Below are positions 23,230 to 63,997 of a DNA stretch of 64,000 nucleotides, one piece after another. The stretch lies in the NCBI GenBank assembly GCA_016783545.1, contig JADHWJ010000001.1, positions 10,369 to 74,368 on the forward strand, given 5' to 3'. Positions within the stretch are counted from its first letter, which is position 1, and every line of letters starts with the position of its first letter. The translations under genes and the position numbers were made by a program. The DNA comes from Candidatus Aenigmatarchaeota archaeon. GTDB taxonomy: Archaea; Aenigmatarchaeota; Aenigmatarchaeia; QMZP01. The notes under the pieces were generated by a model. The model searched no databases. It was not told where the DNA came from and saw only the letters and a program-made list of their open reading frames with translations.

Positions 23230-23231
23230 CT

Positions 23232-42822: not shown

Positions 42823-43239
42823 ATGAAAGAAGAAAAAGAGGTTGTAACTGCAGGAGAAGACGCACAAAAGCCAGCTGAAGCACCAGAGAAGAAAGAAGAG
42901 TCAAAAAAAGGGAATGCTGAGGCACCGGCAACGAAAAAACCAAATTATGTCTACCTTGCACTATTTTTACATTCTGCTAACAAAGAGATAACTGAAGAGA
43001 ACATAAAAAAACTTTCTGATTCTATAGGCGAAAAAGCAGACGATGCGCAATTAAAGGCACTGGTTTCAAGTCTTGAAGGAATTGATATAAATGATGCAAT
43101 AAGCCAGGCAATTGCAGCACCCGCAGCAGCAGCTCCAGTAGGAGAAGTGAAAGAAGAAAAGAAAGAGGAAAAGAAAGAAGAAGACGCTGAAAAGAAATCA
43201 GAAGAAGCTGCAGCAGGACTGAGTTCTCTATTTAGTTAA
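42823..43239 (+). CDS. rpl12: ribosomal stalk protein P1 (aL12) with an approximately 45-aa N-terminal extension
   Basis: NYVYLALFLHSANKEITEENIKKLS...LEGIDINDAI..AAPAAAAP..EEKKEEKKEE matches archaeal P1. The ATG at 42823 is preceded by TAGGAGGT. The ORF-track start at 42730 overlaps rpl10 and is unlikely. Confidence 0.8.
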   Translation: MKEEKEVVTAGEDAQKPAEAPEKKEESKKGNAEAPATKKPNYVYLALFLHSANKEITEENIKKLSDSIGEKADDAQLKALVSSLEGIDINDAISQAIAAPAAAAPVGEVKEEKKEEKKEEDAEKKSEEAAAGLSSLFS

Positions 43240-43302
43240 GATATTGTTCACTGATCAGATGAGATGACGTGAATTTTTAGTTTTTAGAATGTTTTTATTC
43301 TG

Positions 43303-46300
43303 TTAGGCAACTTTATGGTTTAGAGCAGGCGGAGTTTTAGCAGCAGGAAGTACACCACCAGGTCCATGAGCGTGAGGTGGTATGCCAGTTCCAGTCGGCT
43401 TGTCTGCTCCAGCACCGCCCGCACCTGTTCCAGGAGAGATTGCCCATATCATGGCAACTATACAAAGCAGGGAGAGTATGCTGCTCAATCCCATCATGTC
43501 GTTTCCAAAATCCCCATGACTGCTTATACCACCTCTCAACCCGTCTACATTATCTGCATTACAAAGCGACTCCTTTGATTTTTTCAGCTGATCCAGCTCT
43601 TGTTTGGCCTCTTCATATTTTGTCAGGGCGTCTGAAGCAAGGCAGAGAAGGATTGCTGTTGCAAACCTGCAGTACCAAGGAGCGGTCTCGCCCTTATCAA
43701 GAGCTGCTTGGCACACCGCATAGATAATAACAACAGCTGAGATATATTGAGTGAATTCTTCTTTTCTCTTGTCAATTTCGTCTTCTAAATCATCAATATC
43801 AGCTTTAGTTTTTTCACAGTTTATATAATCCAGACTCTTGTTGCCTTTGATTATCAAAGTCCCAGTGGCAGAAAGGTCTCGTGTTGAAACAGTTTCTCCT
43901 TCTTTGTATTCTACTGTAACAAACAAACTGAGAGATCTGTTAACCTTCCTGAGTGCCCTTAACCCATTTTCTATAACAGGTGGTAGTATGGGACATGATA
44001 TATTAATGCTCTGGTTTGTTGAATTAAGTACACTGCAATATGTTTCAGAAATATCACTATCATTGAATTGATATGAACTGCTCTTGAGCTTGGTAAAGCC
44101 TGCAGGAGGATTTTGTATCAGTGCGCTCACCTCAAATGATTGAGTCGATACACATTGCTTTTTCAAATTCACTGAACATTCAATAGGGTTTGGTATATAC
44201 ATATTCAATAGCATTGAATCACTGCTTATACATTCTCCATTCTCTTTAGCACCATTATAACAGAATTGTTCACCCGGACAACCGCAATCCAGACAGCAGG
44301 TGCCTGCTGACTCTCCGACATCATTTTCACATTTACCATCACCGCAATGCGGAATGGGTTTGATTGTAAACAACGGCAGGTCTGCTCTTAGTGTGCCTCC
44401 AACTGTTTTGTCACCGTTATTAAATCTTATCCAAAAGCTAAGGTTTCCTGGTGGAAACCTGACTATACCATTAGGTCTATCAAATAATTGTGAGGTGTTA
44501 TAATCTACTGTGGGTAGCGTCAAATTGCACGCAAAACGCACATCCCCGATTTCTTCACATTCAACAGTACAGGGAACATCATCATCAAACTCGCATGTGG
44601 AACTAGTGAAAATGAACCCTTCTGGTGGCTTTTCAACCATAACAGTCATTTTTGATTTATGATGTATTGTTGTATCCTCAAAATCTTTTTTATCATACTC
44701 TTCAATAATCAATCTTATTTGGGATTTTAACTCACAGCTATCTCCTGGTGTAAATCCCCCCAAATCTTGAGTACTGCAATAATAACCATCATCACACCCA
44801 CAATCATAGCAGCAATTGTTGCTGGTCTCCCACGGTTCATCACAAATTCTATTCCCGCATTGCATCAAACCTATTGAAATGCCTGGTGCAGAAGCTTCCA
44901 GTCGTTTCAAGAGAGCTCCATGTGTACCATCCATGTAGCTTATATTAACAGCTATATCTGGGTTCAATGTATATACTTTTGAAGAATTATATTCAAGCAC
45001 CTGAAATCTTAATGAACATGTCGCATTGTATATGTTTGTATCAGAACTAGGAAGCCCAGAGCATGTTAGTGTGCATGTGGATATGCAGGGAGTTCTGTCA
45101 GCAGTGCATTCAGTTGAACATGTTGTAGAAACAACGCTCATTGTTTTTGGTTTGTTTTGTATATTGATTAATAGATTTACAATTTCTGTGGAAGTTCCTT
45201 TATAGAATGAAAGTGGATTGGCTTCAATAATTACAAGATCACTGTCTATTGGATCTAACCTGCATTCAGCTTGTGTATGATCAGAGACATTATAATCACA
45301 ATAACCTGTTACACAATCACAATCATAGCAGGAATTCTGCTCGTTTTCTCCTAAATCTCTTTGACATTCTCCATCGGCTGGAAACCAGCTAACAACTGTT
45401 ATATCATCAAAATTCCCTTCTAATGTTTTATAAACAGTATCAGCACCATCTGGAAAATTTGTATCCATAACAAGACTGTTAGGTCCTATTGTAAATGTAC
45501 CAGAATCACAATCTGGATCAGCAAATAATGTTATATTACATTTGTATACTTCCCTAACCTTTGCACATGTTGTTGGTAGTGTGGTTTGGTTCAGCCTATA
45601 CATTACACTGTCAAGGTTTATACCACTTGGTTCATTGTCAATAATAACAGAGAGCTCTATCTCATTATCAACTTTGCAGTTAGTTATGCCTGTATTTCCA
45701 GATATGCTAAGCGTTATGCTATCAAGATCTTTACACCCCTTTCCTATATCACAATAATCACTTTCAACACCACAGCCGCAATCAAGACAGCAGTTTACAG
45801 AATTTTCCCCAATACTACCTTCGCATTTCTCACCAGGTGAATCATACCCGGGTCCAAATCCACAGTGATAGTCTGTTACATTATGCAAAGTAATGGGGTT
45901 GTATACACCATTATCATTTTCAGAGAAAACAACCCAGAAATCAGCATCAATTGTCTCTACAGCACTTGCATAACTTTCAGATGTTCTGAAACTGGCAGAG
46001 TCCATTTCAGCTTCATCTCCTTTGATTATATACAATTTGTTACTGTCTGCAAAAACAGCCCTTTCTGTGATATCAGAACGGAAAGGAACTATTTCATTAA
46101 TCCTAACAAAGTCCCTTATGAAACTAAACCTTCCGATTGAATTTGTGTATAAGTTGACTCTATCCAGCTCTCTATTGACTTTGAATAGAACACTTCCTGT
46201 TTTCATTACTTCTTCCCAAAACCCAATCCAGCCAACAGCGCCGCCAACCCTTGTTTTAACAAGCATGAGGATGTTTGCCACATCATCACTTGATATATCA

Positions 46301-46614
46301 GAAAATGGATAAGTTTTTAAGAAATCACCTGAAGAAGAATCATAATCTCCAGCATCTATGCATTCTTTTGGATTTTTATCCGTGCATTTATACACCTGGA
46401 CCTTTTCGATATTGTCTCCCCCCAAAGAGACTGAAACATCATTTCCGTTTAAAGAAATTGATTTAGTTGCTATATCCCCTGGATTTAATTGAACTGTATC
46501 AGAACTCACTCCATAAATCATATTGATTTCAGTTGCGAAAGCAAATGGCATTGAAAAAATTAAATATGTCATGGATATTGCAAACACTTCGAGTATCATT
46601 ATTTTATAATTCAT
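43303..46614 (-). CDS. large secreted Cys-rich protein with four copies of a CG-x-G-x-C...GE-x...CC-x-DCGC module and a multi-TM C-terminal region
   Basis: Signal peptide MNYKIMILEVFAISMTYLIFSMPFAFA. The four repeats are GEKCEGSIGENSVNCCLDCGC, GECQRDLGENEQNSCYDCDC, CGNRICDEPWETSNNCCYDCGC and CGDGKCENDVGESAGTCCLDCGC. The C-terminus has a coiled-coil stretch and hydrophobic helices. Confidence 0.55.
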   Translation of the reverse strand: MNYKIMILEVFAISMTYLIFSMPFAFATEINMIYGVSSDTVQLNPGDIATKSISLNGNDVSVSLGGDNIEKVQVYKCTDKNPKECIDAGDYDSSSGDFLKTYPFSDISSDDVANILMLVKTRVGGAVGWIGFWEEVMKTGSVLFKVNRELDRVNLYTNSIGRFSFIRDFVRINEIVPFRSDITERAVFADSNKLYIIKGDEAEMDSASFRTSESYASAVETIDADFWVVFSENDNGVYNPITLHNVTDYHCGFGPGYDSPGEKCEGSIGENSVNCCLDCGCGVESDYCDIGKGCKDLDSITLSISGNTGITNCKVDNEIELSVIIDNEPSGINLDSVMYRLNQTTLPTTCAKVREVYKCNITLFADPDCDSGTFTIGPNSLVMDTNFPDGADTVYKTLEGNFDDITVVSWFPADGECQRDLGENEQNSCYDCDCVTGYCDYNVSDHTQAECRLDPIDSDLVIIEANPLSFYKGTSTEIVNLLINIQNKPKTMSVVSTTCSTECTADRTPCISTCTLTCSGLPSSDTNIYNATCSLRFQVLEYNSSKVYTLNPDIAVNISYMDGTHGALLKRLEASAPGISIGLMQCGNRICDEPWETSNNCCYDCGCDDGYYCSTQDLGGFTPGDSCELKSQIRLIIEEYDKKDFEDTTIHHKSKMTVMVEKPPEGFIFTSSTCEFDDDVPCTVECEEIGDVRFACNLTLPTVDYNTSQLFDRPNGIVRFPPGNLSFWIRFNNGDKTVGGTLRADLPLFTIKPIPHCGDGKCENDVGESAGTCCLDCGCPGEQFCYNGAKENGECISSDSMLLNMYIPNPIECSVNLKKQCVSTQSFEVSALIQNPPAGFTKLKSSSYQFNDSDISETYCSVLNSTNQSINISCPILPPVIENGLRALRKVNRSLSLFVTVEYKEGETVSTRDLSATGTLIIKGNKSLDYINCEKTKADIDDLEDEIDKRKEEFTQYISAVVIIYAVCQAALDKGETAPWYCRFATAILLCLASDALTKYEEAKQELDQLKKSKESLCNADNVDGLRGGISSHGDFGNDMMGLSSILSLLCIVAMIWAISPGTGAGGAGADKPTGTGIPPHAHGPGGVLPAAKTPPALNHKVA

Positions 46615-48380
46615 TTAATTACACCTCCACAGTTATCTTCTACCATCTCCACGAGCTCTGTTGCATCAAAGCCTGTTTCTGATTTTGGTATATAGGCATC
46701 AAGGCTTGAGCTTACAGAGAATTCATGTTCTTTCAAAAACTCACCTAACAGTAAACCACTTTCAGCATCTGAAGCTGTTGCTTTAACTACATATGTTCCA
46801 GGGGCATATCTCAGAGTTAATGAAGTGGTTAAGCATTTTGAAATACATCCATCAGGGTCAGGTCCAGCTAAACATAAAGAAAAGCACTCAGCATCCACAT
46901 TTGTTGCAGAAGAATCATCAAGATTAATCTCAACCAGTGCTTTCTCATCCCTGACATCTGTTACAGCGCAATCTAATGCGTTAATCATCTGCAAATTGAA
47001 CAGAACTGTTTCAGATTCCTTTCTTACTAGCTCAAGTTCCAGATCTTCAAGGTCATCAGAATCAAAAGCATCTCTAAATGGATCATATCCCTCTTTATTT
47101 ACATAGAGCATATCAATACCGCATTTTACAGAACCCTCTACAATACCCCTGGAATTTGTTGTTCCAATAGGACAATCACCAAACTGTACACGCGCACCGA
47201 AAACAGGCTCCCCTAAATCATTTTCCATTGTTATTTTAGCACTGCAGTCAAGATTGACACAATCATCTTCAATAGGATCTAAATCCAAATTGCATTCGCC
47301 TTCGTCTGGTTCCAATCCGTCAATTCCTACCAACAGCGCAAAATGAAATGCGTGTCCAGAGAGCTTATCATCAACCCTTAAAACAAGAGGATAATATAAT
47401 GAATAATAATGTTCGTATATGGTAAGGCATTGCTGGAAATCAAGTCCGCTGTATCCTGGATCAACTTCATGATCGCCATCATCACAAATTTTCACTGGCC
47501 TATCAACTTCTATTTCGAACCCATCTGATTCAAAAAATCTTATCTGAAGATCTGGATATGTTCTACCGCCCAAATCTTCAATTCCAAATGTCATAGCACC
47601 TTCTGGTGAAGGCTGAATATCTCTCCACCAAAAAGTATTAGTAACCACAAAATCAACAATATTTTCCATTAGTGTTGATACCTGCTCCTTTGAGAGATAT
47701 ATACACTCATCACATTCCATTATAAGCCCTTGCATAGGAAGGAAGCTACTTGACATGTAAAAACCAGTTATTGTAAACCAATCAAAATATCTTTCATTAA
47801 TATTATCATTGACAAGATCATTTGAGAAATCAATTATTCTTCCAAGACTTGAGGAGATGGTGATTTCATATGGTTCAGTTATAAGATAACCGTCTATTTT
47901 TGTTGGTATAGTGGCAGTAAATACAATTTTATTATCCAATATATTCGCAGAAACAACAACGTCTGATAAGTCGAATTCCACTCTCTCCCCAACATCGTTT
48001 GTTAAAGTATTTATTATATAATTTTTAACACCCTCTTCGAGTCTAACTTTAAAAGTACCTTTTGAAACCGTTATCTTCTCACCACATCTCTGCCAATAAG
48101 GAACAACTATACCTGCAAATAAGACGCTTCTATCTAGTGGTGGATCAAAATAACCGCCATGTATGCTTAGATATTCAAGAGACATGTCCGCACCTTCAGT
48201 GATAACGTCTTTAACAGACTCTCTGACAAATTTCTCCCTTTGCATTATACTATACGGTATTGTGGTTGGTTTAAGAACATCTGTCTGCATTGCAAAGAAT
48301 ATGGCCAATACAGCGATTACAACAATGCCCATGATAAAATAAATAGTACTTTGAGATTTCATGTGAAACATTCTTATCAA
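46611..48380 (-). CDS. membrane-anchored extracellular protein, co-operonic with the Cys-module protein
   Basis: 589 aa with an N-terminal TM (IYFIMGIVVIAVLAIFFAM). The body is acidic and Cys-containing. It makes a 4-nt overlap with the downstream gene. Confidence 0.45.
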   Translation of the reverse strand: MIRMFHMKSQSTIYFIMGIVVIAVLAIFFAMQTDVLKPTTIPYSIMQREKFVRESVKDVITEGADMSLEYLSIHGGYFDPPLDRSVLFAGIVVPYWQRCGEKITVSKGTFKVRLEEGVKNYIINTLTNDVGERVEFDLSDVVVSANILDNKIVFTATIPTKIDGYLITEPYEITISSSLGRIIDFSNDLVNDNINERYFDWFTITGFYMSSSFLPMQGLIMECDECIYLSKEQVSTLMENIVDFVVTNTFWWRDIQPSPEGAMTFGIEDLGGRTYPDLQIRFFESDGFEIEVDRPVKICDDGDHEVDPGYSGLDFQQCLTIYEHYYSLYYPLVLRVDDKLSGHAFHFALLVGIDGLEPDEGECNLDLDPIEDDCVNLDCSAKITMENDLGEPVFGARVQFGDCPIGTTNSRGIVEGSVKCGIDMLYVNKEGYDPFRDAFDSDDLEDLELELVRKESETVLFNLQMINALDCAVTDVRDEKALVEINLDDSSATNVDAECFSLCLAGPDPDGCISKCLTTSLTLRYAPGTYVVKATASDAESGLLLGEFLKEHEFSVSSSLDAYIPKSETGFDATELVEMVEDNCGGVIK

Positions 48381-51943: not shown

Positions 51944-52981
51944 ATGGTAGGAATAGTGGGATATGGTTCTTATGTACCTAGGCTTAGGATTTCAGTAGAA
52001 GAGATAGCAAAAGTTTGGGGAGAGAATCCTGAAGGAATAAAAAAAGGATTAAATATCACTGAAAAAAGTGTTCCTGAACTGGATGAGGATACAATTACAA
52101 TAAGTCTGGAGGCAGCGAGAAATGCTCTCCTAAGAGCAGAAATTAATCCAAGAGATATTGGAGCTGTATATATTGGTTCTGAATCACACCCATATGCTGT
52201 GAAACCAAGTGGTACTGTTGTTGCAGAAGCTCTTGGCGTAGGACCTGATGTTAATATCGTTGATACAGAGTTTGCTTGTAAAGCAGGAACATCTTGTATT
52301 ATACTTAATATGGGACTTGTCAAGGCAGGTTACATAAAATATGGTTTAGCAATAGGCGCTGATACCTCACAGGGAAGGCCAGGCGATATGCTTGAATACA
52401 CTGCAGCAGCAGGCGGTGCTGCTTTTATAATAGGAAATAAAGATTTGGTTGCTGAGATAGAGGATTGGTATTCATTTACAACAGACACTTCTGATTTCTG
52501 GAGAAGAGAAGGTCAAGATTATCCAAGTCATGGTGCAAGGTTCACAGGAAAGCCTGCATATTTCAAGCATCTTCTTTCTTCAACGAATAACATAATGGAA
52601 AAAAACAATCTAAAACCAGAAGATTTCAAGCATGTTGTTCTTCATATGCCTAACGGTAAGTTTCCATTAAAAGCTGCCAAAACGCTTGGTTTTTCAAGCG
52701 ATCAGATCAGACAGAGCATGATTGTCTGTAAGATAGGCAACTGTTATTCTGGTTCCAGTGTTCTTGGTCTGACAAATGTTCTTGATATTGCAGAACCAGG
52801 AGATAAGATTTTGATGACATCATATGGTTCTGGTGCAGGTTCTGATTCATTTATAATCAATGTCACTGACAGGATTTTGAAAGTTAGAGACAAGGCAAAG
52901 AAAACCGAGGACTATATGAACAACAAAGAAAACATCAATTATGGTATGTATGCAAGATTGAGGGGGAAGTTGAAGGTATGA
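51944..52981 (+). CDS. hydroxymethylglutaryl-CoA synthase (archaeal type)
   Basis: [21 protein letters not shown]...AARNAL...[12 protein letters not shown] places the active-site Cys in the archaeal HMGCS context. Confidence 0.85.
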
Positions 52982-53151
52982 GCGAAATATGTGCTGGAAA
53001 CAGGGAACTTTTTGTGAGAGATCTAATATCAATGCATGGCGGAACATCAGAAATGATAACAAGCTTATAGCACCAGTTGAAAGTGGAAGGTCTGTAAAAA
53101 TATCTGGTGCAGTATCCGAATACAGTGTGGAACGTATAGAATTAAACGAAT

Positions 53152-53469
53152 TTGAGGGAATATTATATCTGTTTGAAGACGGGAAAGTTACTGGAAAACA
53201 GAAATATAGATGGTCATTGTGAAATTATGAAAACTGAAAGACATTCAAATGCCCAGGCATTTGTTGATGCATATAATGAAGAGTATGGCTTGAGATTTGA
53301 TATTGGTTCAGAAGTTGATACAGTTACTTGTGGAGAATCCAAAAGATGCGTCTGCGAAGATCTCAATTACAGCATCCAGTTGATGAGAGACACTGTTATT
53401 GGGTGTTTTTATTCGGAAAAGGATTCAAAGCATAAGACATTTAGATGGCAGTTTGAGGGCAAAGTATGA
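53152..53469 (+). CDS. hypothetical Cys-containing small protein between HMGCS and thiolase
   Basis: 105 aa. It overlaps a second small ORF at 52989-53222. I recognise no family. Confidence 0.25.
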   Translation: MREYYICLKTGKLLENRNIDGHCEIMKTERHSNAQAFVDAYNEEYGLRFDIGSEVDTVTCGESKRCVCEDLNYSIQLMRDTVIGCFYSEKDSKHKTFRWQFEGKV

Positions 53470-54623
53470 AAAGAGTAGCAATAATCGGAGCAGGTCAGAC
53501 AAAGTTTGATGAACACTGGGAAAAATCACTCAGAGATCTGTCGACAGAAGCAGGTGCTCTGGCATTAGCAGATGCAAAAATAACAAGTAAACAGGTTGAC
53601 GCTCTTTATATTGGCAATATGTCTGCTGGAAGATTTGTTGGACAGGAGCATCTAGGAGCAATGGCAATGGATAATGCAGGGCTGAATCCAAAACCTGCAG
53701 TAAGATGCGAGGCAGCATGTGCATCAAGTGCACTGGCTTTCAGACAGGGTTACATGTCAATACTTTCAGGAGAGCATGATATTGTAATGGTTGGTGGAGC
53801 AGAAAAAATGACTGATCTTAAAGGAACAGGTGCAATCGCAACATTAATGGGTGCTGGTGATCAGGAATGGGAGAGCTCAATAGGAAATACCTTTGTAGGT
53901 TTATACGCATTAATAGCAAGGGCGCATATGAAAGAATTTGGAACAACAAGAGAGCAGATGGCCATGGTGTCTGTAAATAATCATAAAAACGGTTCATTGA
54001 ATCCTCTTGCACAATTTCCATGTGAGATTACTGTTGAAGATGTTCTTAATTCCACTCTAATAGCAGATCCTCTTAGACTATTGGACTGTTCACCTATTAC
54101 AGATGGCGGGGCAGCTCTTATACTTGCATCAGAAGAGGCTGCCAAGAAGCTTGATAACCCTATCTGGGTTCTGGGAACAGGTCAGGCATCTGACACATTA
54201 GCGCTTCATGATAGAAAAAGTCACATTGAAATGATTGCAACAAAAGTAGCTGCAAAGAAAGCATATGAACAGGCAGGTCTAACGTCTGAGAAAATAGATA
54301 TTGCAGAAGTTCATGATTGTTTCAGTATAAATGAAATCCTTGCAATTGAAGACCTTGGTTTTTGTAAGAAGGGCGATGGTGGAAAGTTTGTTGAACAAGG
54401 AAAAATAGCAAGAGATGGTGAGAAACCAATAAACACAACAGGCGGACTGAAATCAATAGGACATCCTGTTGGCGCAACTGGTGTAAGACAGATTGTTGAT
54501 ATCACAAAACAGTTAAGAGGACAGTGTGGTAAACTACAGATGAAGGGAATAAAAAACGGTCTGGCTCTAAACGTAGGTGGTTCAGGAGCAACTGCTGTTG
54601 TTAATATTTTAGGAGTTGATTAA
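53466..54623 (+). CDS. acetyl-CoA acetyltransferase (archaeal thiolase)
   Basis: VAIIGAGQTKF...CEAACASSALA (active-site Cys) ...GHPVGATG. Confidence 0.85.
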   Translation: MKRVAIIGAGQTKFDEHWEKSLRDLSTEAGALALADAKITSKQVDALYIGNMSAGRFVGQEHLGAMAMDNAGLNPKPAVRCEAACASSALAFRQGYMSILSGEHDIVMVGGAEKMTDLKGTGAIATLMGAGDQEWESSIGNTFVGLYALIARAHMKEFGTTREQMAMVSVNNHKNGSLNPLAQFPCEITVEDVLNSTLIADPLRLLDCSPITDGGAALILASEEAAKKLDNPIWVLGTGQASDTLALHDRKSHIEMIATKVAAKKAYEQAGLTSEKIDIAEVHDCFSINEILAIEDLGFCKKGDGGKFVEQGKIARDGEKPINTTGGLKSIGHPVGATGVRQIVDITKQLRGQCGKLQMKGIKNGLALNVGGSGATAVVNILGVD

Positions 54624-55028
54624 ATGGGTCATAGAAGCAGCATACCTCTATATTGGAGATTACAGAAATCAAAGTATAATTTAGTTGGAACAAAATGCAA
54701 AACATGTGGAAAGCTCTATTTTCCACCAAGACAGCTCTGTTCAGAATGTAGAAGAAAGGGTGAGATAGAAGACTTTAGTTTCTCTGGTAAAGGAGAGATA
54801 ATTTCATTTACAGTTATAAGAGCAGCCCCAGAAGGATTTGAAAAATACACACCTTATGCAATTGCATTAATAAAACTGGAAGAAGGTGAAGTTATCTCAG
54901 GTCAGATAGTTGGTGATGTTACTAAAGTCGAAGAAGGAAAAAAAGTGAAGTCTGTTTTCAGAAGAATGCATGAAGACGGAAAAGATGGCGTCATCTTTTA
55001 TGGTGTCAAATTTCAATTAGTTGGTTAG
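54624..55028 (+). CDS. DUF35 OB-fold/zinc-ribbon scaffold protein of the thiolase-HMGCS complex
   Basis: CKTCGKLYFPPRQLCSECRR is a rubredoxin-like zinc ribbon, followed by an OB-fold. Its start abuts the thiolase stop. Confidence 0.8.
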   Translation: MGHRSSIPLYWRLQKSKYNLVGTKCKTCGKLYFPPRQLCSECRRKGEIEDFSFSGKGEIISFTVIRAAPEGFEKYTPYAIALIKLEEGEVISGQIVGDVTKVEEGKKVKSVFRRMHEDGKDGVIFYGVKFQLVG

Positions 55029-57610
55029 AGTATGTCCATATCTGTCTTATTCAGCCTCTTTTCAAATAGTTTCATTAATCTGTATGTCATGGAAGCTGGG
55101 AATTTTTTATAGAATCGCCTGAAAAGAAGCCCTTTTCTAATTCCTTTACCAATAACACTTTCCCATTCTTTTTCATATTGGCTTAAGAAGGATTCTGAAA
55201 AATTATTTTCTCTAAGAGCTTTTTGAATTGTTTCAGCTGCTTTTTCAGCTGCTGTAAACCCATAAACAACACCACCACCACTATTATGAAGTATTAATGG
55301 ACCAAGGCCTCCTATAAACATATTACTTTTTGGAACTTCTATATCAAAAACATCTCTATTTGTTTTTATTTTTCTAATCTCTTTTATAGGGAGAAGTATC
55401 ATTTTATTTTTAATTAATTTTTTTATAAACTCTTTTTCTCTACCATTTCCAATTTTATTCAAACCTTTCAATAATTTTTCATAACTGAGAATATTACAGC
55501 TTTTGTTTTTACATCTATTTGAAATGTATTTTCCAACCTCAGTTTTTATTAGTTCATTTATCATATCATTTGATAAAATGTTTTTTGGAAAACCAAATGT
55601 GGGTCTGGATTTAATATTATTTAAGTATTTTTTAATTTCTATTTTATTTGGGAAAATATCTGAAAGTTTTTCTAAATCTTTTTTGGAGGAAAAACTAATT
55701 TTATATGATTTACTGGTTTTTATTTTTTTATTGTAGAATGAATGTACTCTGCTTTCTGATTCCTCAACTGATGGAAACAAACCCAGTTGCAATGAAAGTA
55801 TAATAATATCACTGGCAAGTTTACGGCTAGCTGTTTTAGAAGAAATTTCTGCAGACCAATTTCTTCTTTTTTCTGGCATTCTAACTCTGCAGAATCCATC
55901 ACCTTTCATATAAGCCTTTAAAAACTCAATCTTCACTTCATCTGAAATGTTGAAAATTATATATGGAATTTGTTTATTATATGCATTCTTACCCGTTTCC
56001 AGTATGTCAGTAAATATTTTGGCAAGTAATTTTCCACCAAAAGATATAGGAAATTCTGTTTCTTCTTTTGTATACGGATTTTTTCTTGGTTTCCAGAAAC
56101 TTATATTAATTCCAAACGTTTTACCAATACAATCTATTAGATCATCCATAATACCGTTTTTAATATCATCTTTTCCTAAGGACATGTGAATGTGTTTACC
56201 TTTTGATGAGTCTCCTTCAGCAATATAATAACCGAGAATACGGCAAAATTCAGGTGTTATTTTAATTATATTCGGAATTTCTACTTTCTTTTTTGGAGGT
56301 TCATAGACAATTCTGACATCTTTAGGTATAATTTTTTCATTCAAAAATAATTTTAGAGGTATAGAGTCGCGGTCCCAATATGTTGTTCTATAATTTATTG
56401 GAACTTCAGAACGCTTAGAAAAAAGAAGTTTTTTCCCTCCTCTAACACGAATTTTTTTCACAAATTCGGGATATTTTTTTATTATCAAATTAATTAAATT
56501 CAGTTCTGTTATATTATTTGCATTATTAGGAACACTTGAAGTAAAAAGTAAGTGATCTTTTTTAGGTTCCAATTCAGAAACTTTTTTAGGCATCAAATTA
56601 AAATCATTTACACAAATTACACTGTGTGAACCTGTTGTCTTAACCCTATAACCTTTATTTGTGATTATTTCAAACATGTTTTCATCCAGTTTATGTTCTA
56701 AACACGATTTTATTTTCATAAAATTTAGAAGAGAAGCATTCTTAGATGGTGAAAATGCATAAATATTTTTTATTTTATTGTTTCTAAAATTGTTAACTAC
56801 TTCTTCTATCTTTACATTTTTTATAAGTCCGTTTTCTTTTATAATTATACTTTCTTCTCCATCAATGCTCCACGGTTTGACCTGTCCTGCTGCATCTCCA
56901 ACTAAGAGAACTCTTTCAGCATAGCTTTTACAGCTACCGATTGGTATCAAAGCGCCCATTCTTTCATAGTCTTTAAGATCAAAGAATCTTTCCAAATCTA
57001 GAAATTTTGCATTCTTTCCAAGTATTCCATATTCTGTTGTTTCCCCTCTTGGAATCTTCCATAGAAAACCATCAGTTATTTTTTTATCATACCAGAGCTC
57101 AACAAAATTATTATTATTTTTTTCTGAAACAGTTGCTATTAGACCATTTACAAGTTCTGTTCTATATCCAAGGAAATCCCTGACAGAAGAGCTTGCACCA
57201 TCACAACCAACCAAGAGTTTTGTATTTAACTTCCCTTTAGTAGTTTCAACAATCAGATGATCTTTAGCCTTTTCAAAACCAATGAACTTTGTATTGAGTT
57301 TAATTTTGGATTCAAGACTCTTTGCAAGACTCTTGTCAAATTTTGACCTATCTAAAACATAGGCCGCTGTCTTTTCTTTGACTAGATTTATAGTGCCTGA
57401 ATTGAAATGTATTTTTGCACCCCTCACTTCATGTTCTAGAAAGTCCTTATTTACTGGAACGAATTTTTCCAAGTTAGTTGATATTAGACCAGAACATGGT
57501 TTCTTACCAATATGGTCTTTGCTTTCAAGAATAACAACATCCAAATCGCTTAGCTTATGTGCTAAGAAAAGTCCAACAGGTCCTGCACCAACAATAACAA
57601 CATCATGCAT
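55025..57610 (-). CDS. geranylgeranyl reductase family flavoprotein interrupted by a 529-aa intein
   Basis: The N-terminus is VVIVGAGPVGLFLAHKL (FAD GxGxxG). The N-extein ends ...VGDAAGQVKPW and the C-extein resumes SGGGVVYGF, so the reconstructed GDAAGQVKPWSGGGV matches the conserved GGR motif GDAAG..P..GGGI. Confidence 0.75.
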   Translation of the reverse strand: MHDVVIVGAGPVGLFLAHKLSDLDVVILESKDHIGKKPCSGLISTNLEKFVPVNKDFLEHEVRGAKIHFNSGTINLVKEKTAAYVLDRSKFDKSLAKSLESKIKLNTKFIGFEKAKDHLIVETTKGKLNTKLLVGCDGASSSVRDFLGYRTELVNGLIATVSEKNNNNFVELWYDKKITDGFLWKIPRGETTEYGILGKNAKFLDLERFFDLKDYERMGALIPIGSCKSYAERVLLVGDAAGQVKPWSIDGEESIIIKENGLIKNVKIEEVVNNFRNNKIKNIYAFSPSKNASLLNFMKIKSCLEHKLDENMFEIITNKGYRVKTTGSHSVICVNDFNLMPKKVSELEPKKDHLLFTSSVPNNANNITELNLINLIIKKYPEFVKKIRVRGGKKLLFSKRSEVPINYRTTYWDRDSIPLKLFLNEKIIPKDVRIVYEPPKKKVEIPNIIKITPEFCRILGYYIAEGDSSKGKHIHMSLGKDDIKNGIMDDLIDCIGKTFGINISFWKPRKNPYTKEETEFPISFGGKLLAKIFTDILETGKNAYNKQIPYIIFNISDEVKIEFLKAYMKGDGFCRVRMPEKRRNWSAEISSKTASRKLASDIIILSLQLGLFPSVEESESRVHSFYNKKIKTSKSYKISFSSKKDLEKLSDIFPNKIEIKKYLNNIKSRPTFGFPKNILSNDMINELIKTEVGKYISNRCKNKSCNILSYEKLLKGLNKIGNGREKEFIKKLIKNKMILLPIKEIRKIKTNRDVFDIEVPKSNMFIGGLGPLILHNSGGGVVYGFTAAEKAAETIQKALRENNFSESFLSQYEKEWESVIGKGIRKGLLFRRFYKKFPASMTYRLMKLFEKRLNKTDMDIL
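55283..56869 (-). mobile_element. intein with LAGLIDADG homing-endonuclease domain inside the GGR gene
   Basis: It begins SIDGEESIIIKENG...KTTGSHSV (splicing blocks A and B). It contains LGYYIAEGD and LKAYMKGDG (LAGLIDADG motifs) and ends ...GLGPLILHN, followed by Ser+1. Confidence 0.7.
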
Positions 57611-57639
57611 AGATATTCTTTTGTAAGGTTATTTTAAAG

Positions 57640-58300
57640 CACTATCTATCCCTCTTAATAGACAATATAAAGGGCATGGAGCCCTTGAAGCTATAACATC
57701 CCAATCTGAACAAGATCAGAAAATCATAGTTTTCGATATTTGGGAGTGGTATTTCAAGGTCGACTCCACAGAAGCTGGCGCTCCTGTCTCTAAGTCTCCC
57801 ACTTACACTACACACCAGATATCTATCAAGGGTTTGGTAGATAGGGAATCGGACCCCAAGCAGAACCATGACCAATAAACTATCCGACCTTGGCCTGCGC
57901 TACACCTTTACTGGTCCACCACCATTCCATGCCCAGGGAATGAATCCCTTCCAACAAGCCGCCGGGGCTTATCCCACAGTCGGCGGCTGTTTAGTCCAAA
58001 CCTTCACGTATCCTCAAAATAAGTATGACCTCGCCGATAAAGGCACTCATACAAACTGGATGCCACCAATCAAGATCACGCACCTTTGTCCTGTTCGGGG
58101 CATTTCCTTTGTGCCACACTTCTAGAAGCCTCTGAAACCCCTCGGATTTCAGCCAACCGACTGTTACTCTTTCAAGATCCATCACAAAATCCCCTCCAAA
58201 GATTCTCCCCAGACGTTGAATGTGGTTCAGAAAGAGACTATTCACTAAGAAAAAGTTCATGCTCTCTGAACAGTGAAAATGGTAGATAACCAACTAAGTT
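57640..58300. ncRNA. GC-rich ORF-free island, probably encoding one or more structured ncRNAs (SRP RNA or RNase P RNA are candidates; identity and strand unresolved)
   Basis: GC is clearly above the genome average and only short overlapping ORFs on both strands are present. Perfect stems occur: AAGGGC-AUGGA-GCCCUU at 57670-57687; GCCGCCG-(GGGCUUAUCCCACAGU)-CGGCGGC at 57958-57987 with a nested GGG-CUUAU-CCC; and GGGAAUGAAUCCC at 57936-57948. Confidence 0.4.
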
Positions 58301-58420
58301 GTTAAACTAAAATTGGCTAATATTTTCATTTGTTCATATGATTTAAAAAGCTTTAAAAGAGGAAACTATTAGATAATTAATAAATACTTATAGACTAATT
58401 AAACATAATTAAGGAATAAT

Positions 58421-59257
58421 ATGGATTATAAACTTTTGCTAATAGTGCCATTATTGTTATTATTCGGTTCAATTGCAATACTTGTAAACGGTTACGTTCA
58501 GACAGGAGAATGGTTTGAAAGGTCAATAGAGCTTCGCGGAGGAACACTGATAACCGTAAATACAGACGAGCAGCAAGATATCAATTCTATAGAAAAACAG
58601 CTCTCAGAAGAGTTTGGTGCAGTTATAGTGAAGGGATTAAGAGGTATAGGTGGATATGGAATACAGATAGAGGTTGGTTCTGATGCAGATTCCAGCAGAA
58701 TCCTAGAGATATTGTCAGAATATATGGATACCTCAAAATCATCTATAGAATCAATAGAGCCGGCTCTTGGAGAGACCTTTTGGAACCAGGCACAACTTGG
58801 AATCATATTAGCGTTCATTTTTATGGGAATAATAGTTTTTGCAATATTTAGAAGTTTTGTTCCTAGTTTTGCTGTTATATTGGCTGCGGTTTCTGACATA
58901 CTAGTTACACTAACACTCATGCAGGTTTTTAAAATAGAACTTACTTTAGCTGGTCTGGCATCGCTTCTAATGCTCATAGGATATAGTATAGACACTGACA
59001 TAATGCTTACAACAAGACTTCTCAAGAGAGCTGGAAATCTCAAAGAAAACATAAACTCAGCATTCAAAACAGGCATAACAATGACAGGAACAACATTGGG
59101 CGCTTTGGCTGTTATATACATTGTTCCAACATCTCCTGTCATAACAGAGATAGCAAGCATATTGTTAATAGGTCTTGTTATTGATGTTATTATGACATGG
59201 CTGCAGAATTCTGTTCTGTTAAGATGGTATGTAGAAAGGAGAAATGTAATATGCTAA
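58421..59257 (+). CDS. secF: protein-export membrane protein SecF
   Basis: N-terminal TM, then ELRGGTLITV, a periplasmic-type domain, and a C-terminal six-TM bundle. It is immediately followed by secD. Confidence 0.8.
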   Translation: MDYKLLLIVPLLLLFGSIAILVNGYVQTGEWFERSIELRGGTLITVNTDEQQDINSIEKQLSEEFGAVIVKGLRGIGGYGIQIEVGSDADSSRILEILSEYMDTSKSSIESIEPALGETFWNQAQLGIILAFIFMGIIVFAIFRSFVPSFAVILAAVSDILVTLTLMQVFKIELTLAGLASLLMLIGYSIDTDIMLTTRLLKRAGNLKENINSAFKTGITMTGTTLGALAVIYIVPTSPVITEIASILLIGLVIDVIMTWLQNSVLLRWYVERRNVIC

Positions 59258-61038
59258 AACATTGGCGTGTATTGATATTATTGGTAATGTTGTTAGGTGC
59301 TGTATTATCCATAGGACTAAAATTATATCCTTATGGAAGGTATGGAGTGGAAATCGTTTATATAACAGATGACTCTCCCGCTAGAGATGTTATTGAAAAT
59401 GGTATGCAGATAACAGAACTGAATGGTGAACGAATAGAAAATTCAGAAGATTGGAATAGAAGAATAAGCAACCTGACAGGGAATATATCTTTGCGAGCTA
59501 ATGGTGAGATATATGAAATAGAGATTGTTGACATACTTGGGATAGATGTGATGGATATAGAGAGGACAAATTTGGAATTTGGCCTTGATTTAAGAGGTGG
59601 GACAAGGATAATTTTAACACCTGAGAATGTAACTGATAAAGAAACAATGGATCAGATTTTAGCAACTCTGCAGACAAGAGCAAACCTTTACGGACTAAAG
59701 GAAATAAAGTTTTATTCGATAAAAGGAGAGCGATCATATATACAGGTAGAGGCTACTGGACTTGGAAGTGAGGTTGTAAACCAGCTGCTTTCAACACAGG
59801 GTAAGTTTGAGGCAAAGGTTGGAAAACCAGTTACAATAAATGATAATAAAGGAAACTTCATCTTAGGTGATAGGAGTTATCCTGTTACATATAATAATGG
59901 TACAGTAGAGATAAACAATTCTTTAATACAGTCAAATGATACATTTACCCTTGAAGGAATACTGTTTCAATATCTGAATAAAACAGACGATAAACTGATA
60001 TTTCTTGGAACAGTGTATGAAGGGGAAGACATAGAACTTGTTTATACAGATCCTCAGAGATCTGGTATAGTACCAAGAGGTGGAGGATATAACTTTTATT
60101 TTGTTGTTCTGGTCTCCCAAGACGGTGCGCAGAGGTTTGCAGACGTGACAACAGGCATACCAAAGATTTTGGATATAGAGATAGGAGAAGAATATCTGGA
60201 TTCGAACATATACCTTTTCCTTGATAACAAGCTTGTTTCAAGTCTGAGAATAGGAGAGAGTCTTGGAGGAGAGGTTTATACAACTCCACAGATACAGGGA
60301 TCAAGACTGAATATGGAAGATGCTATAGAAGAGAAATTAAGGCTGCAGACAATATTGAGATCAGGTGCTCTTCCAACAAAGCTGGAAACAGTTTCTGTTG
60401 ATATTATATCACCAACACTTGGAAAGGGCTTTTTCAGCTCAACTCTATACGCAGGTCTTTTTGCTGGTATTGCGGTTATAATCATAATATTCCTCAGATA
60501 TAGGAGCATAAAATTAGCATTACCACTGGTCTTCATTGGACTTTCAGAGGTGTTGATAATACTGGGAATTGCAGCAACAAATGATTCGTTTATATGGGGG
60601 ACTGTTATGGTTGTAAATGCCTCAATCGCTATTTTAGCGTGGTGGAAAAAACAAGAGATGGATATATACGCATGGGCAGGTGTTATAATCATACCATTGC
60701 TTGGTATGCTGTCATGGACAATAGATCTTCCTACAATAGGCGGAATAATAGCTGCGATAGGAACAGGCGTAGATCATCAGATAATAATAGCAGATGAAGT
60801 GGTTATTGGAAGAAAGATAGAAGAGAAGATATTCTTCAGTATGAAGGAGAAGATAAAGTCTGCATTCTTTATCATATTTGGTGCAGCAGCAACCACAATT
60901 GCTGCAATGGTGCCTTTGGTATTCTTGGGCATAGGTTTAGTGAGAGGATTTGCAATAACAACAATGATAGGTGTTCTTGTTGGCATATTGATAACAAGGC
61001 CTGCATATGCGAAGATAGTTGAAGTGTTGTTTAAGTAA
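59251..61038 (+). CDS. secD: protein-export membrane protein SecD
   Basis: LDLRGGTRIIL is present after the N-terminal TM. A large extracytoplasmic domain and C-terminal TM bundle follow. I chose the start at MLKHW (59251) to minimise overlap with secF. Confidence 0.8.
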   Translation: MLKHWRVLILLVMLLGAVLSIGLKLYPYGRYGVEIVYITDDSPARDVIENGMQITELNGERIENSEDWNRRISNLTGNISLRANGEIYEIEIVDILGIDVMDIERTNLEFGLDLRGGTRIILTPENVTDKETMDQILATLQTRANLYGLKEIKFYSIKGERSYIQVEATGLGSEVVNQLLSTQGKFEAKVGKPVTINDNKGNFILGDRSYPVTYNNGTVEINNSLIQSNDTFTLEGILFQYLNKTDDKLIFLGTVYEGEDIELVYTDPQRSGIVPRGGGYNFYFVVLVSQDGAQRFADVTTGIPKILDIEIGEEYLDSNIYLFLDNKLVSSLRIGESLGGEVYTTPQIQGSRLNMEDAIEEKLRLQTILRSGALPTKLETVSVDIISPTLGKGFFSSTLYAGLFAGIAVIIIIFLRYRSIKLALPLVFIGLSEVLIILGIAATNDSFIWGTVMVVNASIAILAWWKKQEMDIYAWAGVIIIPLLGMLSWTIDLPTIGGIIAAIGTGVDHQIIIADEVVIGRKIEEKIFFSMKEKIKSAFFIIFGAAATTIAAMVPLVFLGIGLVRGFAITTMIGVLVGILITRPAYAKIVEVLFK

Positions 61039-61057: not shown

Positions 61058-63997
61058 TTACTTTTGCCAAGGCCTTTTCTTTTTCCTTTTAGTAGCAGAC
61101 TTGACCCTTTTCTTTACATGATGAACAGCTCTTTTTATGTTTTCACTTCTGTTTTTTTTTGGACTGAAACCGCGCTGTGGGCTATATCCAGAAGGAGGTG
61201 GTAAAAGTAAATAAAGGAGTAGTACAGCAACAATAATTGCCACAGTCACACCAACCCATAACCATGGATTAAGCCACCATGCACCGGCAGCTTTTTCTAT
61301 AACTTCTTTGAACTCGGACTTTACCCTTTCCAATTCAGTTAGTGTGCTGTTAAGTGTTGTTGTAAGCTCTGTGAGAATAGTTTCTGCGGTTGCATAATTC
61401 TCATTGTTTATTGCAGTTAGTGCAGAAGTTAGCTTTTCATTACTGCTATTCAGTAGACGTTCAACCTCAGTGAGATTTTCACTAGGCACAACACCATAAG
61501 AAACTATGCTCCTAAATTCTGTTGATAGGTTGCTGAATATGGAAAGAAGCGAATAATATGATTCGTTTATTCCTTCAAGTCTTTCAGTTGTTACCATTAC
61601 ATCAAAAAGGAATGTTTTTTCATTCTTTATTGTATCTCTGGCTGCATTTTCATAAGCAATAAATTTGCCTGAATGATTTCCTAGTGAAGAAGTATTTGAT
61701 ATATTAAATGTTACATTGTATACACAGCTCGCATTTAATCCAAGTGAACAGGAAGCAGGTGCGACAGATGCTGTGATATCACTGCTTATATCTATATCAA
61801 GCTTGGATAATATTGCCCTCTGACCTGTATTGTTAACTCTTATTTTTGTAAAGTTTGAACCCCCTGGAATACCACTCAAAAAGCTTACATGCTCTGTAAT
61901 AAGAAGTGAATCAGGTATACAAATATGATTTACTATGGCTCCCAAAGAACAGGGTACGGCTTTACATGTGCTTGTACTGGTGTCACAATATTGATTTGAA
62001 GCGCAGGTTGAATTTGAACTGCAAGAGTCACCTGTGCCTGCATTATTATTATTACCACTAGATGTAGAAACCTCAACAACTGACACACCACCGGATATGC
62101 TGGAATATGTATTGTCTGTTGCTGTGATTGATACTGGGCATGCTGTTGTGGAGCTCACATTTCCAGCTGTAAGACTCCAATAGTACCAGCAGATTTCAGT
62201 CCCGTTTTCAGTTATGTTTATCTGAGCCACATTGCTTCCGGTTGCATAAGAACCACACCCATCTTTTTTGTTGTTAAGCACGGGTGTTATAGTGCTGCAG
62301 GTTGATAATGTTATGTTACCAGTTGCAGGTAGATTACCAAAATTCACAACACTCATATTGTAATAGATAACAGTGTCCTCATTTGTTGTCCGATTCGCAT
62401 TGCTTATGAAAGTAATGTTCAGTCCAGTTCTATTAATTGTTAGAGGATAATTATAATTGCTTCCAGAGAACGAAAGGTTGTCCTTGATATAACTGGCATT
62501 CACATATACTCGATATTTTCCGCCAGGTATACCTGTTGGTATGCTTACGTTTATGTTATATATATTTGAAGAGTAGAGTGGTGAAGTGCCATTGTATTCT
62601 GTTAGAAAACTGCTGCTTGACGTTGGATATCTGTATGTTGTGACATTATTTTCCACAAGCCATACTGTAAAGTTCTCTAGTTGAAGAGCATTTATCAGTG
62701 TATTGTTCAGCAATGAAACATTTGTAAATATAGTTATATTCTCAGCCCTTGAGACATTCTCAATTTCAGTGTTTCCATCAGCTGTTTTTATCTGCGTTAT
62801 ATTAACAATAAGGTCATTTGTAAGATTTACCTGAACTGTCAGGTTAAAGCCCTGATAAGGGTATGCATCTGTTGCATTAAGATATATCCAGCCTGCATAC
62901 ACACCTTCCCGATTACCTGTTTCATTGGTGTCTACTGTAAAGTTTATTTCCATTTGGGTACTGGAACCAATCGTAAGGTTATTTGGACATGAATATGAGA
63001 AGTTTATACCATAACTGCTGCTTGTGAGATTAGTTGAATTTGTGCAGTTAATTGATGTGATGTTTCTGTTTCCTGTGTTGTTTATTGGTATTGATATCTG
63101 CAAATCAGTACCGCTCCTATTAAATCCTATATTATCTCTTATCTGGACAGTATCAGATTCAAATGTACTGTTTACCAGAAGAGTGCCTGTTGTCACATTT
63201 ACTGAAAGAGGTGTTGAGAGTATTGCTCCTCTACTATCTCTGTAATCGAAAAATCCTTGGTATAGACCACTGATACTTGTATTTGGTATGGTAAATGTTA
63301 GAGCAAAGTTCTTTGTGTAATTGCTTACATTAGTTATGTTAAGGCTTGTTGTTGTATAATTAGAGCTTAGCCAAGTGTTTACAAAGAACATAAGATCGAT
63401 TGTATAGTTGCCGTTCATGACAGTGTTGTTTAGAACCTCTGCCCTCCAAATACCTTTGGTGATAGATGTTGTTTCAATAAACTCTTCTTGCATTGCCCCT
63501 GTGACATTTGCATTCACTCTTTTACCTGTTGAATTGGAAACCAATGTTCCATTTGGCAAATACAAACTGAGAGTGTAATTTGTTCCATCTGTCCAATTGA
63601 TCAAAGTCTTTACCCGTGTTGCGTATGAAGGAACAGTGAAAGTATAATTATTTGCTATGGTTGAATTAGACCTATCCAAATGATAAAATCTCTTTAATTC
63701 TACTGTACTTAATGAGGTAAGATTTCCATCATTCCTCAAAGTAATATTAACAGTGGTGTTCTCGCTAATATTCATCTCACCAAAACTTAGATTATATATT
63801 GTATTGTTATTGCTAGTGTTTGTCAAATTCAATGATGTGAAATATAAATTACCAGTGTAGTTTTCTGCTGCTGTGAAATTTCCATATAACCTTATCTCCC
63901 ATAGACCAGGCGTTAGATAGCTGTAATTAAGCACTTCAGAATTAGTGCTTTTACCTGCTGACTTGGAAGCGAATAACGAATTATTGAAAAGAAACAT
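61058..63997 (-). CDS. S-layer/surface glycoprotein candidate: Asn/Thr-rich with dense N-x-S/T sequons and a C-terminal TM anchor; the N-terminus probably lies beyond the window
   Basis: At least 979 aa with dozens of N-x-[ST] sequons (NFTA, NYTG, NLTN, NTSN, NISE, NTTV, ...). The C-terminus is WLWVGVTVAIIVAVLLLYLLL followed by the basic tail KKRVKSATKRKKKRPWQK. There is no signal peptide at the first in-window Met, and the frame is open to the window edge. Confidence 0.5.
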   Translation of the reverse strand: MFLFNNSLFASKSAGKSTNSEVLNYSYLTPGLWEIRLYGNFTAAENYTGNLYFTSLNLTNTSNNNTIYNLSFGEMNISENTTVNITLRNDGNLTSLSTVELKRFYHLDRSNSTIANNYTFTVPSYATRVKTLINWTDGTNYTLSLYLPNGTLVSNSTGKRVNANVTGAMQEEFIETTSITKGIWRAEVLNNTVMNGNYTIDLMFFVNTWLSSNYTTTSLNITNVSNYTKNFALTFTIPNTSISGLYQGFFDYRDSRGAILSTPLSVNVTTGTLLVNSTFESDTVQIRDNIGFNRSGTDLQISIPINNTGNRNITSINCTNSTNLTSSSYGINFSYSCPNNLTIGSSTQMEINFTVDTNETGNREGVYAGWIYLNATDAYPYQGFNLTVQVNLTNDLIVNITQIKTADGNTEIENVSRAENITIFTNVSLLNNTLINALQLENFTVWLVENNVTTYRYPTSSSSFLTEYNGTSPLYSSNIYNINVSIPTGIPGGKYRVYVNASYIKDNLSFSGSNYNYPLTINRTGLNITFISNANRTTNEDTVIYYNMSVVNFGNLPATGNITLSTCSTITPVLNNKKDGCGSYATGSNVAQINITENGTEICWYYWSLTAGNVSSTTACPVSITATDNTYSSISGGVSVVEVSTSSGNNNNAGTGDSCSSNSTCASNQYCDTSTSTCKAVPCSLGAIVNHICIPDSLLITEHVSFLSGIPGGSNFTKIRVNNTGQRAILSKLDIDISSDITASVAPASCSLGLNASCVYNVTFNISNTSSLGNHSGKFIAYENAARDTIKNEKTFLFDVMVTTERLEGINESYYSLLSIFSNLSTEFRSIVSYGVVPSENLTEVERLLNSSNEKLTSALTAINNENYATAETILTELTTTLNSTLTELERVKSEFKEVIEKAAGAWWLNPWLWVGVTVAIIVAVLLLYLLLPPPSGYSPQRGFSPKKNRSENIKRAVHHVKKRVKSATKRKKKRPWQK

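Follow-up and report, generated by a model that had tools for sequence, protein, structure and literature searches.

A predicted class 1 LAGLIDADG intein in the active-site loop of a geranylgeranyl reductase-family flavoprotein from a Candidatus Aenigmarchaeota archaeon

Results and discussion

The precursor gene and its splice junctions

The window analysed here is a stretch of 64,000 nucleotides from a Candidatus Aenigmarchaeota metagenome-assembled genome (MAG; contig JADHWJ010000001.1, positions 10,369 to 74,368), whose proteins are held in GenBank under locus tags ISS36_ on one contig of 119,898 bp. Its reverse strand encodes a flavoprotein of the geranylgeranyl reductase (GGR) family that is interrupted by an insert of 529 residues (Table 1). 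The insert is, very probably, a canonical class 1 LAGLIDADG intein, lying in frame in the active-site loop of the GGR of this DPANN archaeon. The precursor is identical (861/861 residues) to GenBank entry MBL7206027.1 (P0282), which bears the name 'FAD-dependent monooxygenase [Ca. Aenigmarchaeota archaeon]'.

Table 1. Coordinates of the intein-bearing GGR gene, its parts and its convergent neighbours in the window.
Feature	Coordinates	Strand	Size, evidence or remarks
Precursor gene, GGR-family flavoprotein plus intein	55025..57610	-	861 aa plus stop; open reading frame list
N-extein, aa 1-247	56870..57610	-	FAD_binding_3 and TIGR02032 matches; 3oz2 alignment
Intein, aa 248-776, class 1, Ser1 and terminal His-Asn	55283..56869	-	1587 nt, 529 aa
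N-terminal splicing (Hint) half, intein residues 1-119	56513..56869	-	TIGR01445; aligns with 5o9j/5o9i, E 9e-15
LAGLIDADG homing-endonuclease domain, intein residues 200-406	55652..56272	-	LAGLIDADG_3; PI-PkoII (2cw7) alignment
C-terminal splicing half, intein residues 477-529, blocks F and G	55283..55441	-	TIGR01443; TFIIB intein alignment
C-extein, aa 777-861, plus stop codon	55025..55282	-	opens with Ser+1, then GGG
HMG-CoA synthase	51944-52981	+	convergent neighbour of the GGR gene
Thiolase	53466-54623	+	convergent neighbour of the GGR gene
DUF35/OB-fold protein	54624-55028	+	overlaps the end of the GGR gene by 4 nt

The insert occupies exactly the coordinates that a preliminary description of the window, made from the sequence alone, had assigned to an intein, and the Ser1 and Ser+1 which that description had named can be read directly at the junctions as Ser248 and Ser777. 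With slashes at the two splice points, the precursor reads ...LLVGDAAGQVKPW/SIDGEES...GPLILHN/SGGGVVYG... Both junctions are in frame within the single uninterrupted open reading frame (ORF). A stop-free frame of 529 codons has a chance probability of ~1.6e-23 at the insert's own base composition, and the same-strand alternative frames across the insert are full of stops (54 and 73), which excludes a frame left open by chance.

Two ENA contigs (P0135 and P0283) hold fragments that span the C-terminal junction and are 100% identical to the window sequence over it, which argues against an assembly artefact. We consider it extremely improbable that the insert is a non-splicing domain, part of a dead gene or a chimera created in assembling the metagenome bin. 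The source is indeed a MAG, and GC content drops sharply within the insert; against this stand the in-frame junctions, the two identical fragments, an open frame that chance would provide at only ~1e-23, and splicing residues that are intact here and do not vary among 19 sequences obtained independently, from varied samples and assemblers.

The splicing apparatus

Profile matches were judged against the curated Pfam and TIGRFAM cut-offs. The insert scored above them with Pfam Intein_splicing (60.5 bits, cut-off 35.8; residues 12-529, reaching the last model position), with TIGR01445 intein_Nterm (34.4 bits, cut-off 24.5) and with TIGR01443 intein_Cterm, which covers blocks F and G (18.2 bits, cut-off 15.6), as it did with the endonuclease profile LAGLIDADG_3 (23.5 bits, cut-off 22.5). 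The comparison with intein profiles that the preliminary description had recommended thus comes out in favour of an intein in all four cases, including blocks F and G, on whose presence its interpretation had hung.

The residues predicted to carry out splicing are all in place. The block A nucleophile is Ser248 (Ser1), and block B is T326-G-S-H329 (56624-56635); none of the 19 full-length GGR inteins compared (see below) departs from Ser1 or from the Thr and His of block B. Block F reads VFDIEV...NMFIGG and contains D756, and block G is LILHN; D756, H775 and N776 are likewise kept in 19/19, while the +1 residue, S777 in the window protein, is Ser or Thr. The presence of Ser1, the T..H pair, the block F Asp, the terminal His-Asn and Ser+1 rules out class 2 (Ala1) inteins, class 3 (WCT) inteins and bacterial intein-like domains.

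The precursor was modelled with AlphaFold from an alignment of 60 sequences. The model reached a mean predicted local distance difference test score (pLDDT) of 89.7, and the score fell below 50 only at residues 245-249 and 776-779, that is, at both splice junctions. Searched against the PDB with Foldseek, the insert matched the inteins PI-PkoII (2cw7), TliVMA (7qss) and PI-PfuI (1dq3) best, with E values of 5e-22, 9e-20 and 6e-16. In a comparison of sequence with solved structures, its splicing halves were closest to the TFIIB inteins 5o9i/5o9j (E 9e-15, 2e-13). By every criterion testable here the insert is a class 1 intein, and it is predicted to be self-splicing.

The endonuclease domain

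Residues 200-406, in the middle of the insert, align with PI-PkoII, the same intein that heads the structural matches. LAGLIDADG motif 1 (LGYYIAEG) lies in RILGYYIAEGDSS (56204-56242) and provides the acidic residue E465; motif 2 (FLKAYMKGDG) lies in KIEFLKAYMKGDGFCR (55886-55933) and provides D571. The role of these acidic residues has been described (PMC8966425). Both are kept in 18 of the 19 GGR inteins, the exception being P0001, in which the Asp of motif 2 is replaced by Asn. Among the long segments of the intein the endonuclease domain is conserved best, with a mean pairwise identity of 50.6%; the corresponding values are 51.2% for the C-terminal splicing half, which has 53 residues, and 41% for the N-terminal splicing half. 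Profiles, the PI-PkoII alignment and the structural match all bear out the nested endonuclease of the preliminary description. As predicted from the sequence, the two-motif LAGLIDADG nuclease is intact and would be expected to cleave DNA.

The host enzyme and the insertion site

The spliced extein comprises 332 residues and matches TIGR02032, the geranylgeranyl reductase family, at 174.5 bits (cut-off 158.8). Foldseek aligned the exteins with 3oz2 at an E value of 1.2e-18 and a root-mean-square deviation of 2.8 Å over 288 columns, and with the SaGGR entries at ~1e-14; 288 columns exceed the 247 residues of the N-extein, so both extein halves were matched to 3oz2 together. By sequence, TaGGR, the digeranylgeranylglycerophospholipid reductase of Thermoplasma acidophilum (Ta0516, 3oz2), and the Sulfolobus GGR (3atq) are the best solved relatives (E 7.7e-15), with which the spliced extein shares the active-site Cys, the W..P motif, GDAA and GGG. 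They differ from it in lacking an intein, in identity (~21%) and in length, at 397-453 aa as against 332 aa, the C-terminal part being shorter in the clade of the window protein.

The hallmarks of GGR are an active-site Cys, the motif YXWXFPX7-8GXG and a catalytic GGG motif (PMC6309074). The N-extein has a GxGxxG Rossmann motif, Cys39 (in KPCSG), FLWKIP...G and, at its end, the FAD motif GDAAGQVKPW; the active-site Cys39 and GGG (G778-G780) are both found and conserved, while the aromatic motif departs from the published form, reading FLWKIP-x7-GILG, with Y replaced by F, F by I, and GxG by GxxG.

The intein follows the GDAAG FAD motif and precedes the catalytic GGG motif by one residue. The alignment of the extein with TaGGR runs across the junction ('lvgdaarlidpitgggi') and confirms that the insertion falls inside the GDAAG..GGG loop, as the preliminary description had it. 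Its view of the host as a GGR that saturates lipids can be followed in part: membership of the GGR family is upheld by TIGR02032 and by the 3oz2 fold. The equivalog models for digeranylgeranylglycerophospholipid reductase, NF041080 and NF041160, gave scores below their cut-offs (69.7/580 and 59.6/780 bits), and because equivalog level is not reached, lipid saturation and the substrate of the host enzyme are only presumed.

Empty sites and a syntenic orthologue

The best 120 homologues of the spliced extein are 44-54% identical to it, and none of them contains the insert (0/120), since all are only 312-369 aa long; those with a named source come mostly from Aenigmarchaeota or Nanoarchaeota. In an alignment of 50 of them the intein columns were empty save for a shared Ser. 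The closest homologue (P0015, locus L017) is encoded in the order SecF-GGR-DUF35-thiolase-HMGCS-..-AlaRS, as in the window, and its site is uninterrupted, reading LLVGDAAGQTKPW-SGGGVIYG; split at the insertion point, this empty site is GCAGCAGGGCAGACAAAGCCTTGG/AGTGGTGGTGGTGTTATCTATGGT. The empty sites which the preliminary description had suggested looking for in orthologous genes are therefore found in 120/120 homologues and in a syntenic orthologue, and none of these homologues has the inserted region as a genuine GGR domain.

Amino-acid identities between L017 and the window are 54% for the GGR extein, 75% for HMGCS, 81% for thiolase, 72% for DUF35, 74% for SecF and 67% for AlaRS. Across this region (51944-59257) the GGR extein is far more diverged than its neighbours, and the divergence is not clustered near the intein site; at the DNA level the two genes are 81% identical within 21 nt on each side of the site and 62% identical over their whole length.

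When a tree of the exteins was built by neighbour joining, the L017 orthologue came out as sister of the window protein, within a clade of 50 intein-free sequences. A fragment, P0144, represents a second, separate intein carrier in the broad clade of the window protein. The carriers outside this clade were chosen for the tree via their intein.

Inteins at the same site in other archaea

Protein and genome searches yielded at least 19 distinct full-length inteins at the identical GGR site. They come from Iainarchaeum (five genomes), Micrarchaeota (two), Nanoarchaeia, other archaea and metagenomic proteins. Mutually the GGR inteins are about 37-60% identical. Among ten full-length proteins the mean pairwise identity was 45% for the inteins and 32% for the exteins, with the intein the more alike in 43/45 pairs, and intein and extein identities were weakly correlated (Spearman 0.37). 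In an exhaustive search of representatives the GGR inteins scored 279-469 bits and the next relatives at most 203 bits; because of this fall in score we regard the GGR inteins as a group of their own.

One of the GGR-intein loci (L003, CAZUSQ010000002.1) is labelled 'uncultured Methanosarcinales archaeon', the only named carrier not assigned to DPANN; either the locus was misbinned or mislabelled, or the intein may really occur outside that group. In P0005/P0140 the N-extein is short, as if the host gene were truncated; this was rejected, for the gene runs into the contig end with its frame open to base 1.

The intein also stands apart from its genome in composition. Its GC content is 26.8%, whereas the exteins have 35.0% (34-35% on the flanks) and the other genes average 35.9%; of the 38 further ORFs in the window that reach 150 aa, none has so low a value (z -3.2). 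GC at third codon positions is 0.178 in the intein, 0.243 in the exteins and 0.279 on average in other genes (z -2.4 for the intein). This composition fits a foreign origin, with amino-acid bias contributing.

Homing and vertical inheritance

Taken together, the data point to a splicing-competent, horizontally spreading homing intein, both splicing and DNA cleavage being predictions. The scattered distribution of the GGR inteins and the mismatch between intein and host histories are supportive of homing, though not decisive, and for the lineage of the window a horizontal gain from another DPANN GGR is the most parsimonious history.

Several observations weigh against this interpretation. No near-identical intein was found in a different host lineage, and at the 37-54% identity that separates the GGR inteins here no transfer is recent. 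No co-conversion tract was found in the flanking extein, the flanks being most like intein-free members of the clade. The tree is uninformative about the frequency of inteins outside the clade of the window protein, since carriers there were chosen via the intein. The low GC content of the intein could stem in part from its Lys/Asn/Ile-rich composition and not from foreign origin. LAGLIDADG_3 exceeds its cut-off by only 1 bit; the scores with the equivalog models leave a role of the host in lipid saturation only presumed; and splicing and cleavage are predictions from sequence.

Some of these points are shared by a different history, in which the intein still splices but is immobile: it would have been inherited vertically from an early DPANN GGR and lost precisely many times, with the endonuclease now a relic or repurposed. 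The absence of a co-conversion tract, the lack of any transfer recent enough to be caught among inteins 37-60% identical, the weak correlation of intein with extein identities and the motif 2 Asp to Asn change of P0001, which shows that decay is possible, would all fit such a history. It accounts less well for an endonuclease better conserved than any other long part of the intein, with acidic residues kept in 18/19, or for an intein that outconserves its host enzyme in 43/45 pairs and is atypical in composition for its genome. Moreover, the only carriers seen in their clade, which has more than 120 intein-free members, are the window protein and P0144, so that dozens of precise deletions would be needed. 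We therefore hold an immobile, vertically inherited intein to be unlikely, though it is the strongest competitor of the homing intein favoured here.

Related inteins in other hosts

The TFIIB inteins of Methanocaldococcus (MjaTFIIB, 5o9j, and MvuTFIIB, 5o9i) are, like the window intein, archaeal class 1 inteins with Ser1, and share with it the N-terminus S[IV]D..E.IIIKENG.IK.VKI and the C-terminus ...F[IV][AG]G.G..[IV]LHN. The native TFIIB intein protein also has a LAGLIDADG domain (PMC8966425), whereas the chains solved as 5o9i/5o9j were engineered into mini-inteins that lack the endonuclease. At 335 residues as against 529, the native MjaTFIIB intein is smaller, and its host is the transcription factor TFIIB and not a flavoenzyme. 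PI-PkoII, TliVMA and PI-PfuI resemble the window intein in architecture, with a two-motif LAGLIDADG nuclease and accessory domains interrupting the Hint domain, but are only 14-16% identical to it, and their hosts are a DNA polymerase, a V-type ATPase and a ribonucleotide reductase.

The nearest relatives by sequence outside GGR are inteins in topoisomerase VI subunit A (Top6A) of Thermoproteota, Nitrososphaerales and Bathyarchaeota, which scored 164-203 bits (P0141, P0142, P0146, P0148) or are 29-32% identical to the window intein (L010-L012). Those of L010-L012 have, like the GGR inteins, Ser1 and Ser/Thr+1; their host differs in being an enzyme of DNA metabolism, and they occupy two other sites, one just ahead of TDGDPWG (L010) and one just ahead of SDIVKY (L011, L012). 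The genes lie in MAGs, at 3251-5959 of L010 (Thermoproteota), 2881-5529 of L011 (Nitrososphaerales) and 3161-5833 of L012 (Bathyarchaeota). Further next relatives are inteins in an XPD-type helicase, in NrdD and in the tetraether lipid synthase Tes, and a radical-SAM activase in a Nanoarchaeota MAG (L013, 3761-5965) carries a relative with Ser1.

The relation to Tes deserves separate mention, for the best NCBIfam match of the intein is NF045703 (Tes, intein-containing), at 96.5 bits over the intein part. Two Tes proteins, P0149 and P0152, pass the equivalog model NF045702 and have inteins 34-35% identical to that of the window. Tes is a second archaeal membrane-lipid enzyme, as the GGR is presumed to be, into which this broad lineage of inteins has moved, but it is a radical SAM protein with another insertion site; and while the Tes intein has been curated by NCBI, the GGR case is not named intein-containing.

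A possible splicing pathway and its consequences

By analogy with class 1 inteins, splicing of the GGR intein may be envisaged to take the four standard steps, with oxygen nucleophiles, as follows. The 861-aa precursor would first be translated; since the intein keeps its GDAAG FAD motif apart from the catalytic GGG, it presumably lacks enzyme activity. An N-O acyl shift at Ser248 (Ser1) would then be aided by Thr326 and His329 of block B and by Asp756 of block F, and Ser777 (+1) would attack the resulting ester in a trans-esterification. Cyclization of Asn776, helped by His775, followed by an O-N shift, would release the 332-aa reductase (...KPW-SGGG...) with the geometry of its FAD and substrate sites restored. 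The endonuclease of the freed intein would cut intein-less GGR alleles at the site, whereupon repair would copy the intein in, which constitutes homing.

A precursor expected to be inactive, with the insertion between the FAD and GGG motifs, also invites the proposal of a domesticated intein that acts as a conditional switch, its splicing answering to redox state, FAD, substrate or temperature and so gating active reductase and isoprenoid saturation. Several DPANN phyla have inteins at this site, and conditional splicing has been documented in other inteins of archaea, such as that of RadA (PMC4513877, PMC5790916, PMC11409957). Nothing in the sequence demands such a reading, however: positions 1 and +1 hold Ser and not a redox-sensitive Cys, most close relatives lack the intein, and an intact endonuclease fits selfish persistence. 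We consider a domesticated switch improbable.

Were splicing of the GGR intein dependent on conditions, maturation of the enzyme could give DPANN archaea a means of post-translational control over isoprenoid or lipid saturation, and the spread of the intein over Aenigmarchaeota, Iainarchaeota, Micrarchaeota and Nanoarchaeia could trace direct gene flow between episymbiotic lineages; that both of these hold together seems to us a long shot. The homing intein preferred here leaves the understanding of intein function unchanged and implies no new mechanism.

Significance of a GGR as intein host

In archaea, 66.9% of intein hosts are replication or repair proteins and 8.3% belong to nucleotide metabolism (PMC4760082). 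Inteins in metabolic enzymes, for example UDP-glucose dehydrogenase and ribonucleotide reductase (PMC2874743), are known but uncommon. The preliminary description had called a lipid flavoenzyme an unusual host, and unusual it is; it is not unique, in view of the at least 19 inteins at the same site and the related inteins in Tes. A full-text literature search found no published description of a GGR intein, and inteins go unmentioned in a review of GGR multiplicity and in the Tes paper. The GGR intein allele is thus apparently undescribed, though present without a label in public databases.

With it, a flavin-dependent isoprenoid reductase joins the known intein hosts and provides a clean example outside the replication network, one that recurs across DPANN phyla; the GGR inteins and the related Tes inteins together indicate that archaeal membrane-lipid enzymes are also targets. 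The GenBank label of the window protein makes no reference to an intein, and surveys of DPANN lipid genes that go by length or by profile could misjudge such entries. At least 19 alleles at one site across DPANN phyla offer a possible marker of gene exchange among uncultured organisms. The GGR inteins are also a source of cysteine-free (Ser1/Ser+1) inteins and of a new LAGLIDADG specificity.

Neighbouring genes and other features of the window

A mevalonate-pathway trio of HMG-CoA synthase, thiolase and DUF35 protein (51944..55028, forward strand) converges on the GGR gene, a neighbourhood that fits, weakly, an isoprenoid role for it. Neither further inteins nor a second GGR copy were found in the window. 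Family-B DNA polymerase is a frequent intein host in archaea; the one encoded in the window (879 aa; 5217-7856, forward strand) lacks an intein, as do nine other large ORFs that were scanned.

The start of the GGR gene is separated from SecF by a gap of 810 bp, which contains a GC-rich island (57735-58300), with 46-50% GC in a window of 36% GC. The corresponding gap in L017 measures only 62 bp, so that about 550-750 bp are extra in the window. For RNA genes the whole window was scanned at the Rfam gathering threshold and 57500-58500 in E-value mode, and ARAGORN was run; both Rfam and ARAGORN came up empty, and an RNA gene was rejected as the cause of the island. The island gave no Rfam, tRNA or Pfam match and has no repeat elsewhere in the window, and its RNA fold is not significant (z -1.5 and -0.8).

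Seven large ORFs of 549-1616 aa match no Pfam family at E<=1e-4. Four lie in the first half of the window, at 15960-20810 (reverse), 21580-23229, 23205-26558 and 26540-28534 (all forward), and three in the second, at 43303-46614, 46611-48380 and 61058-63997 (all reverse). GC-rich patches occur within some of them, around 18500-19000, 27600-28000 and 43200-43700. A SecD-like ORF of 613 aa (59197-61038, forward strand) falls into the same 90% cluster as MBL7206030.1, a 'hypothetical protein' of 241 aa from the same contig, and the deposited gene call seems to be shorter than the open frame.

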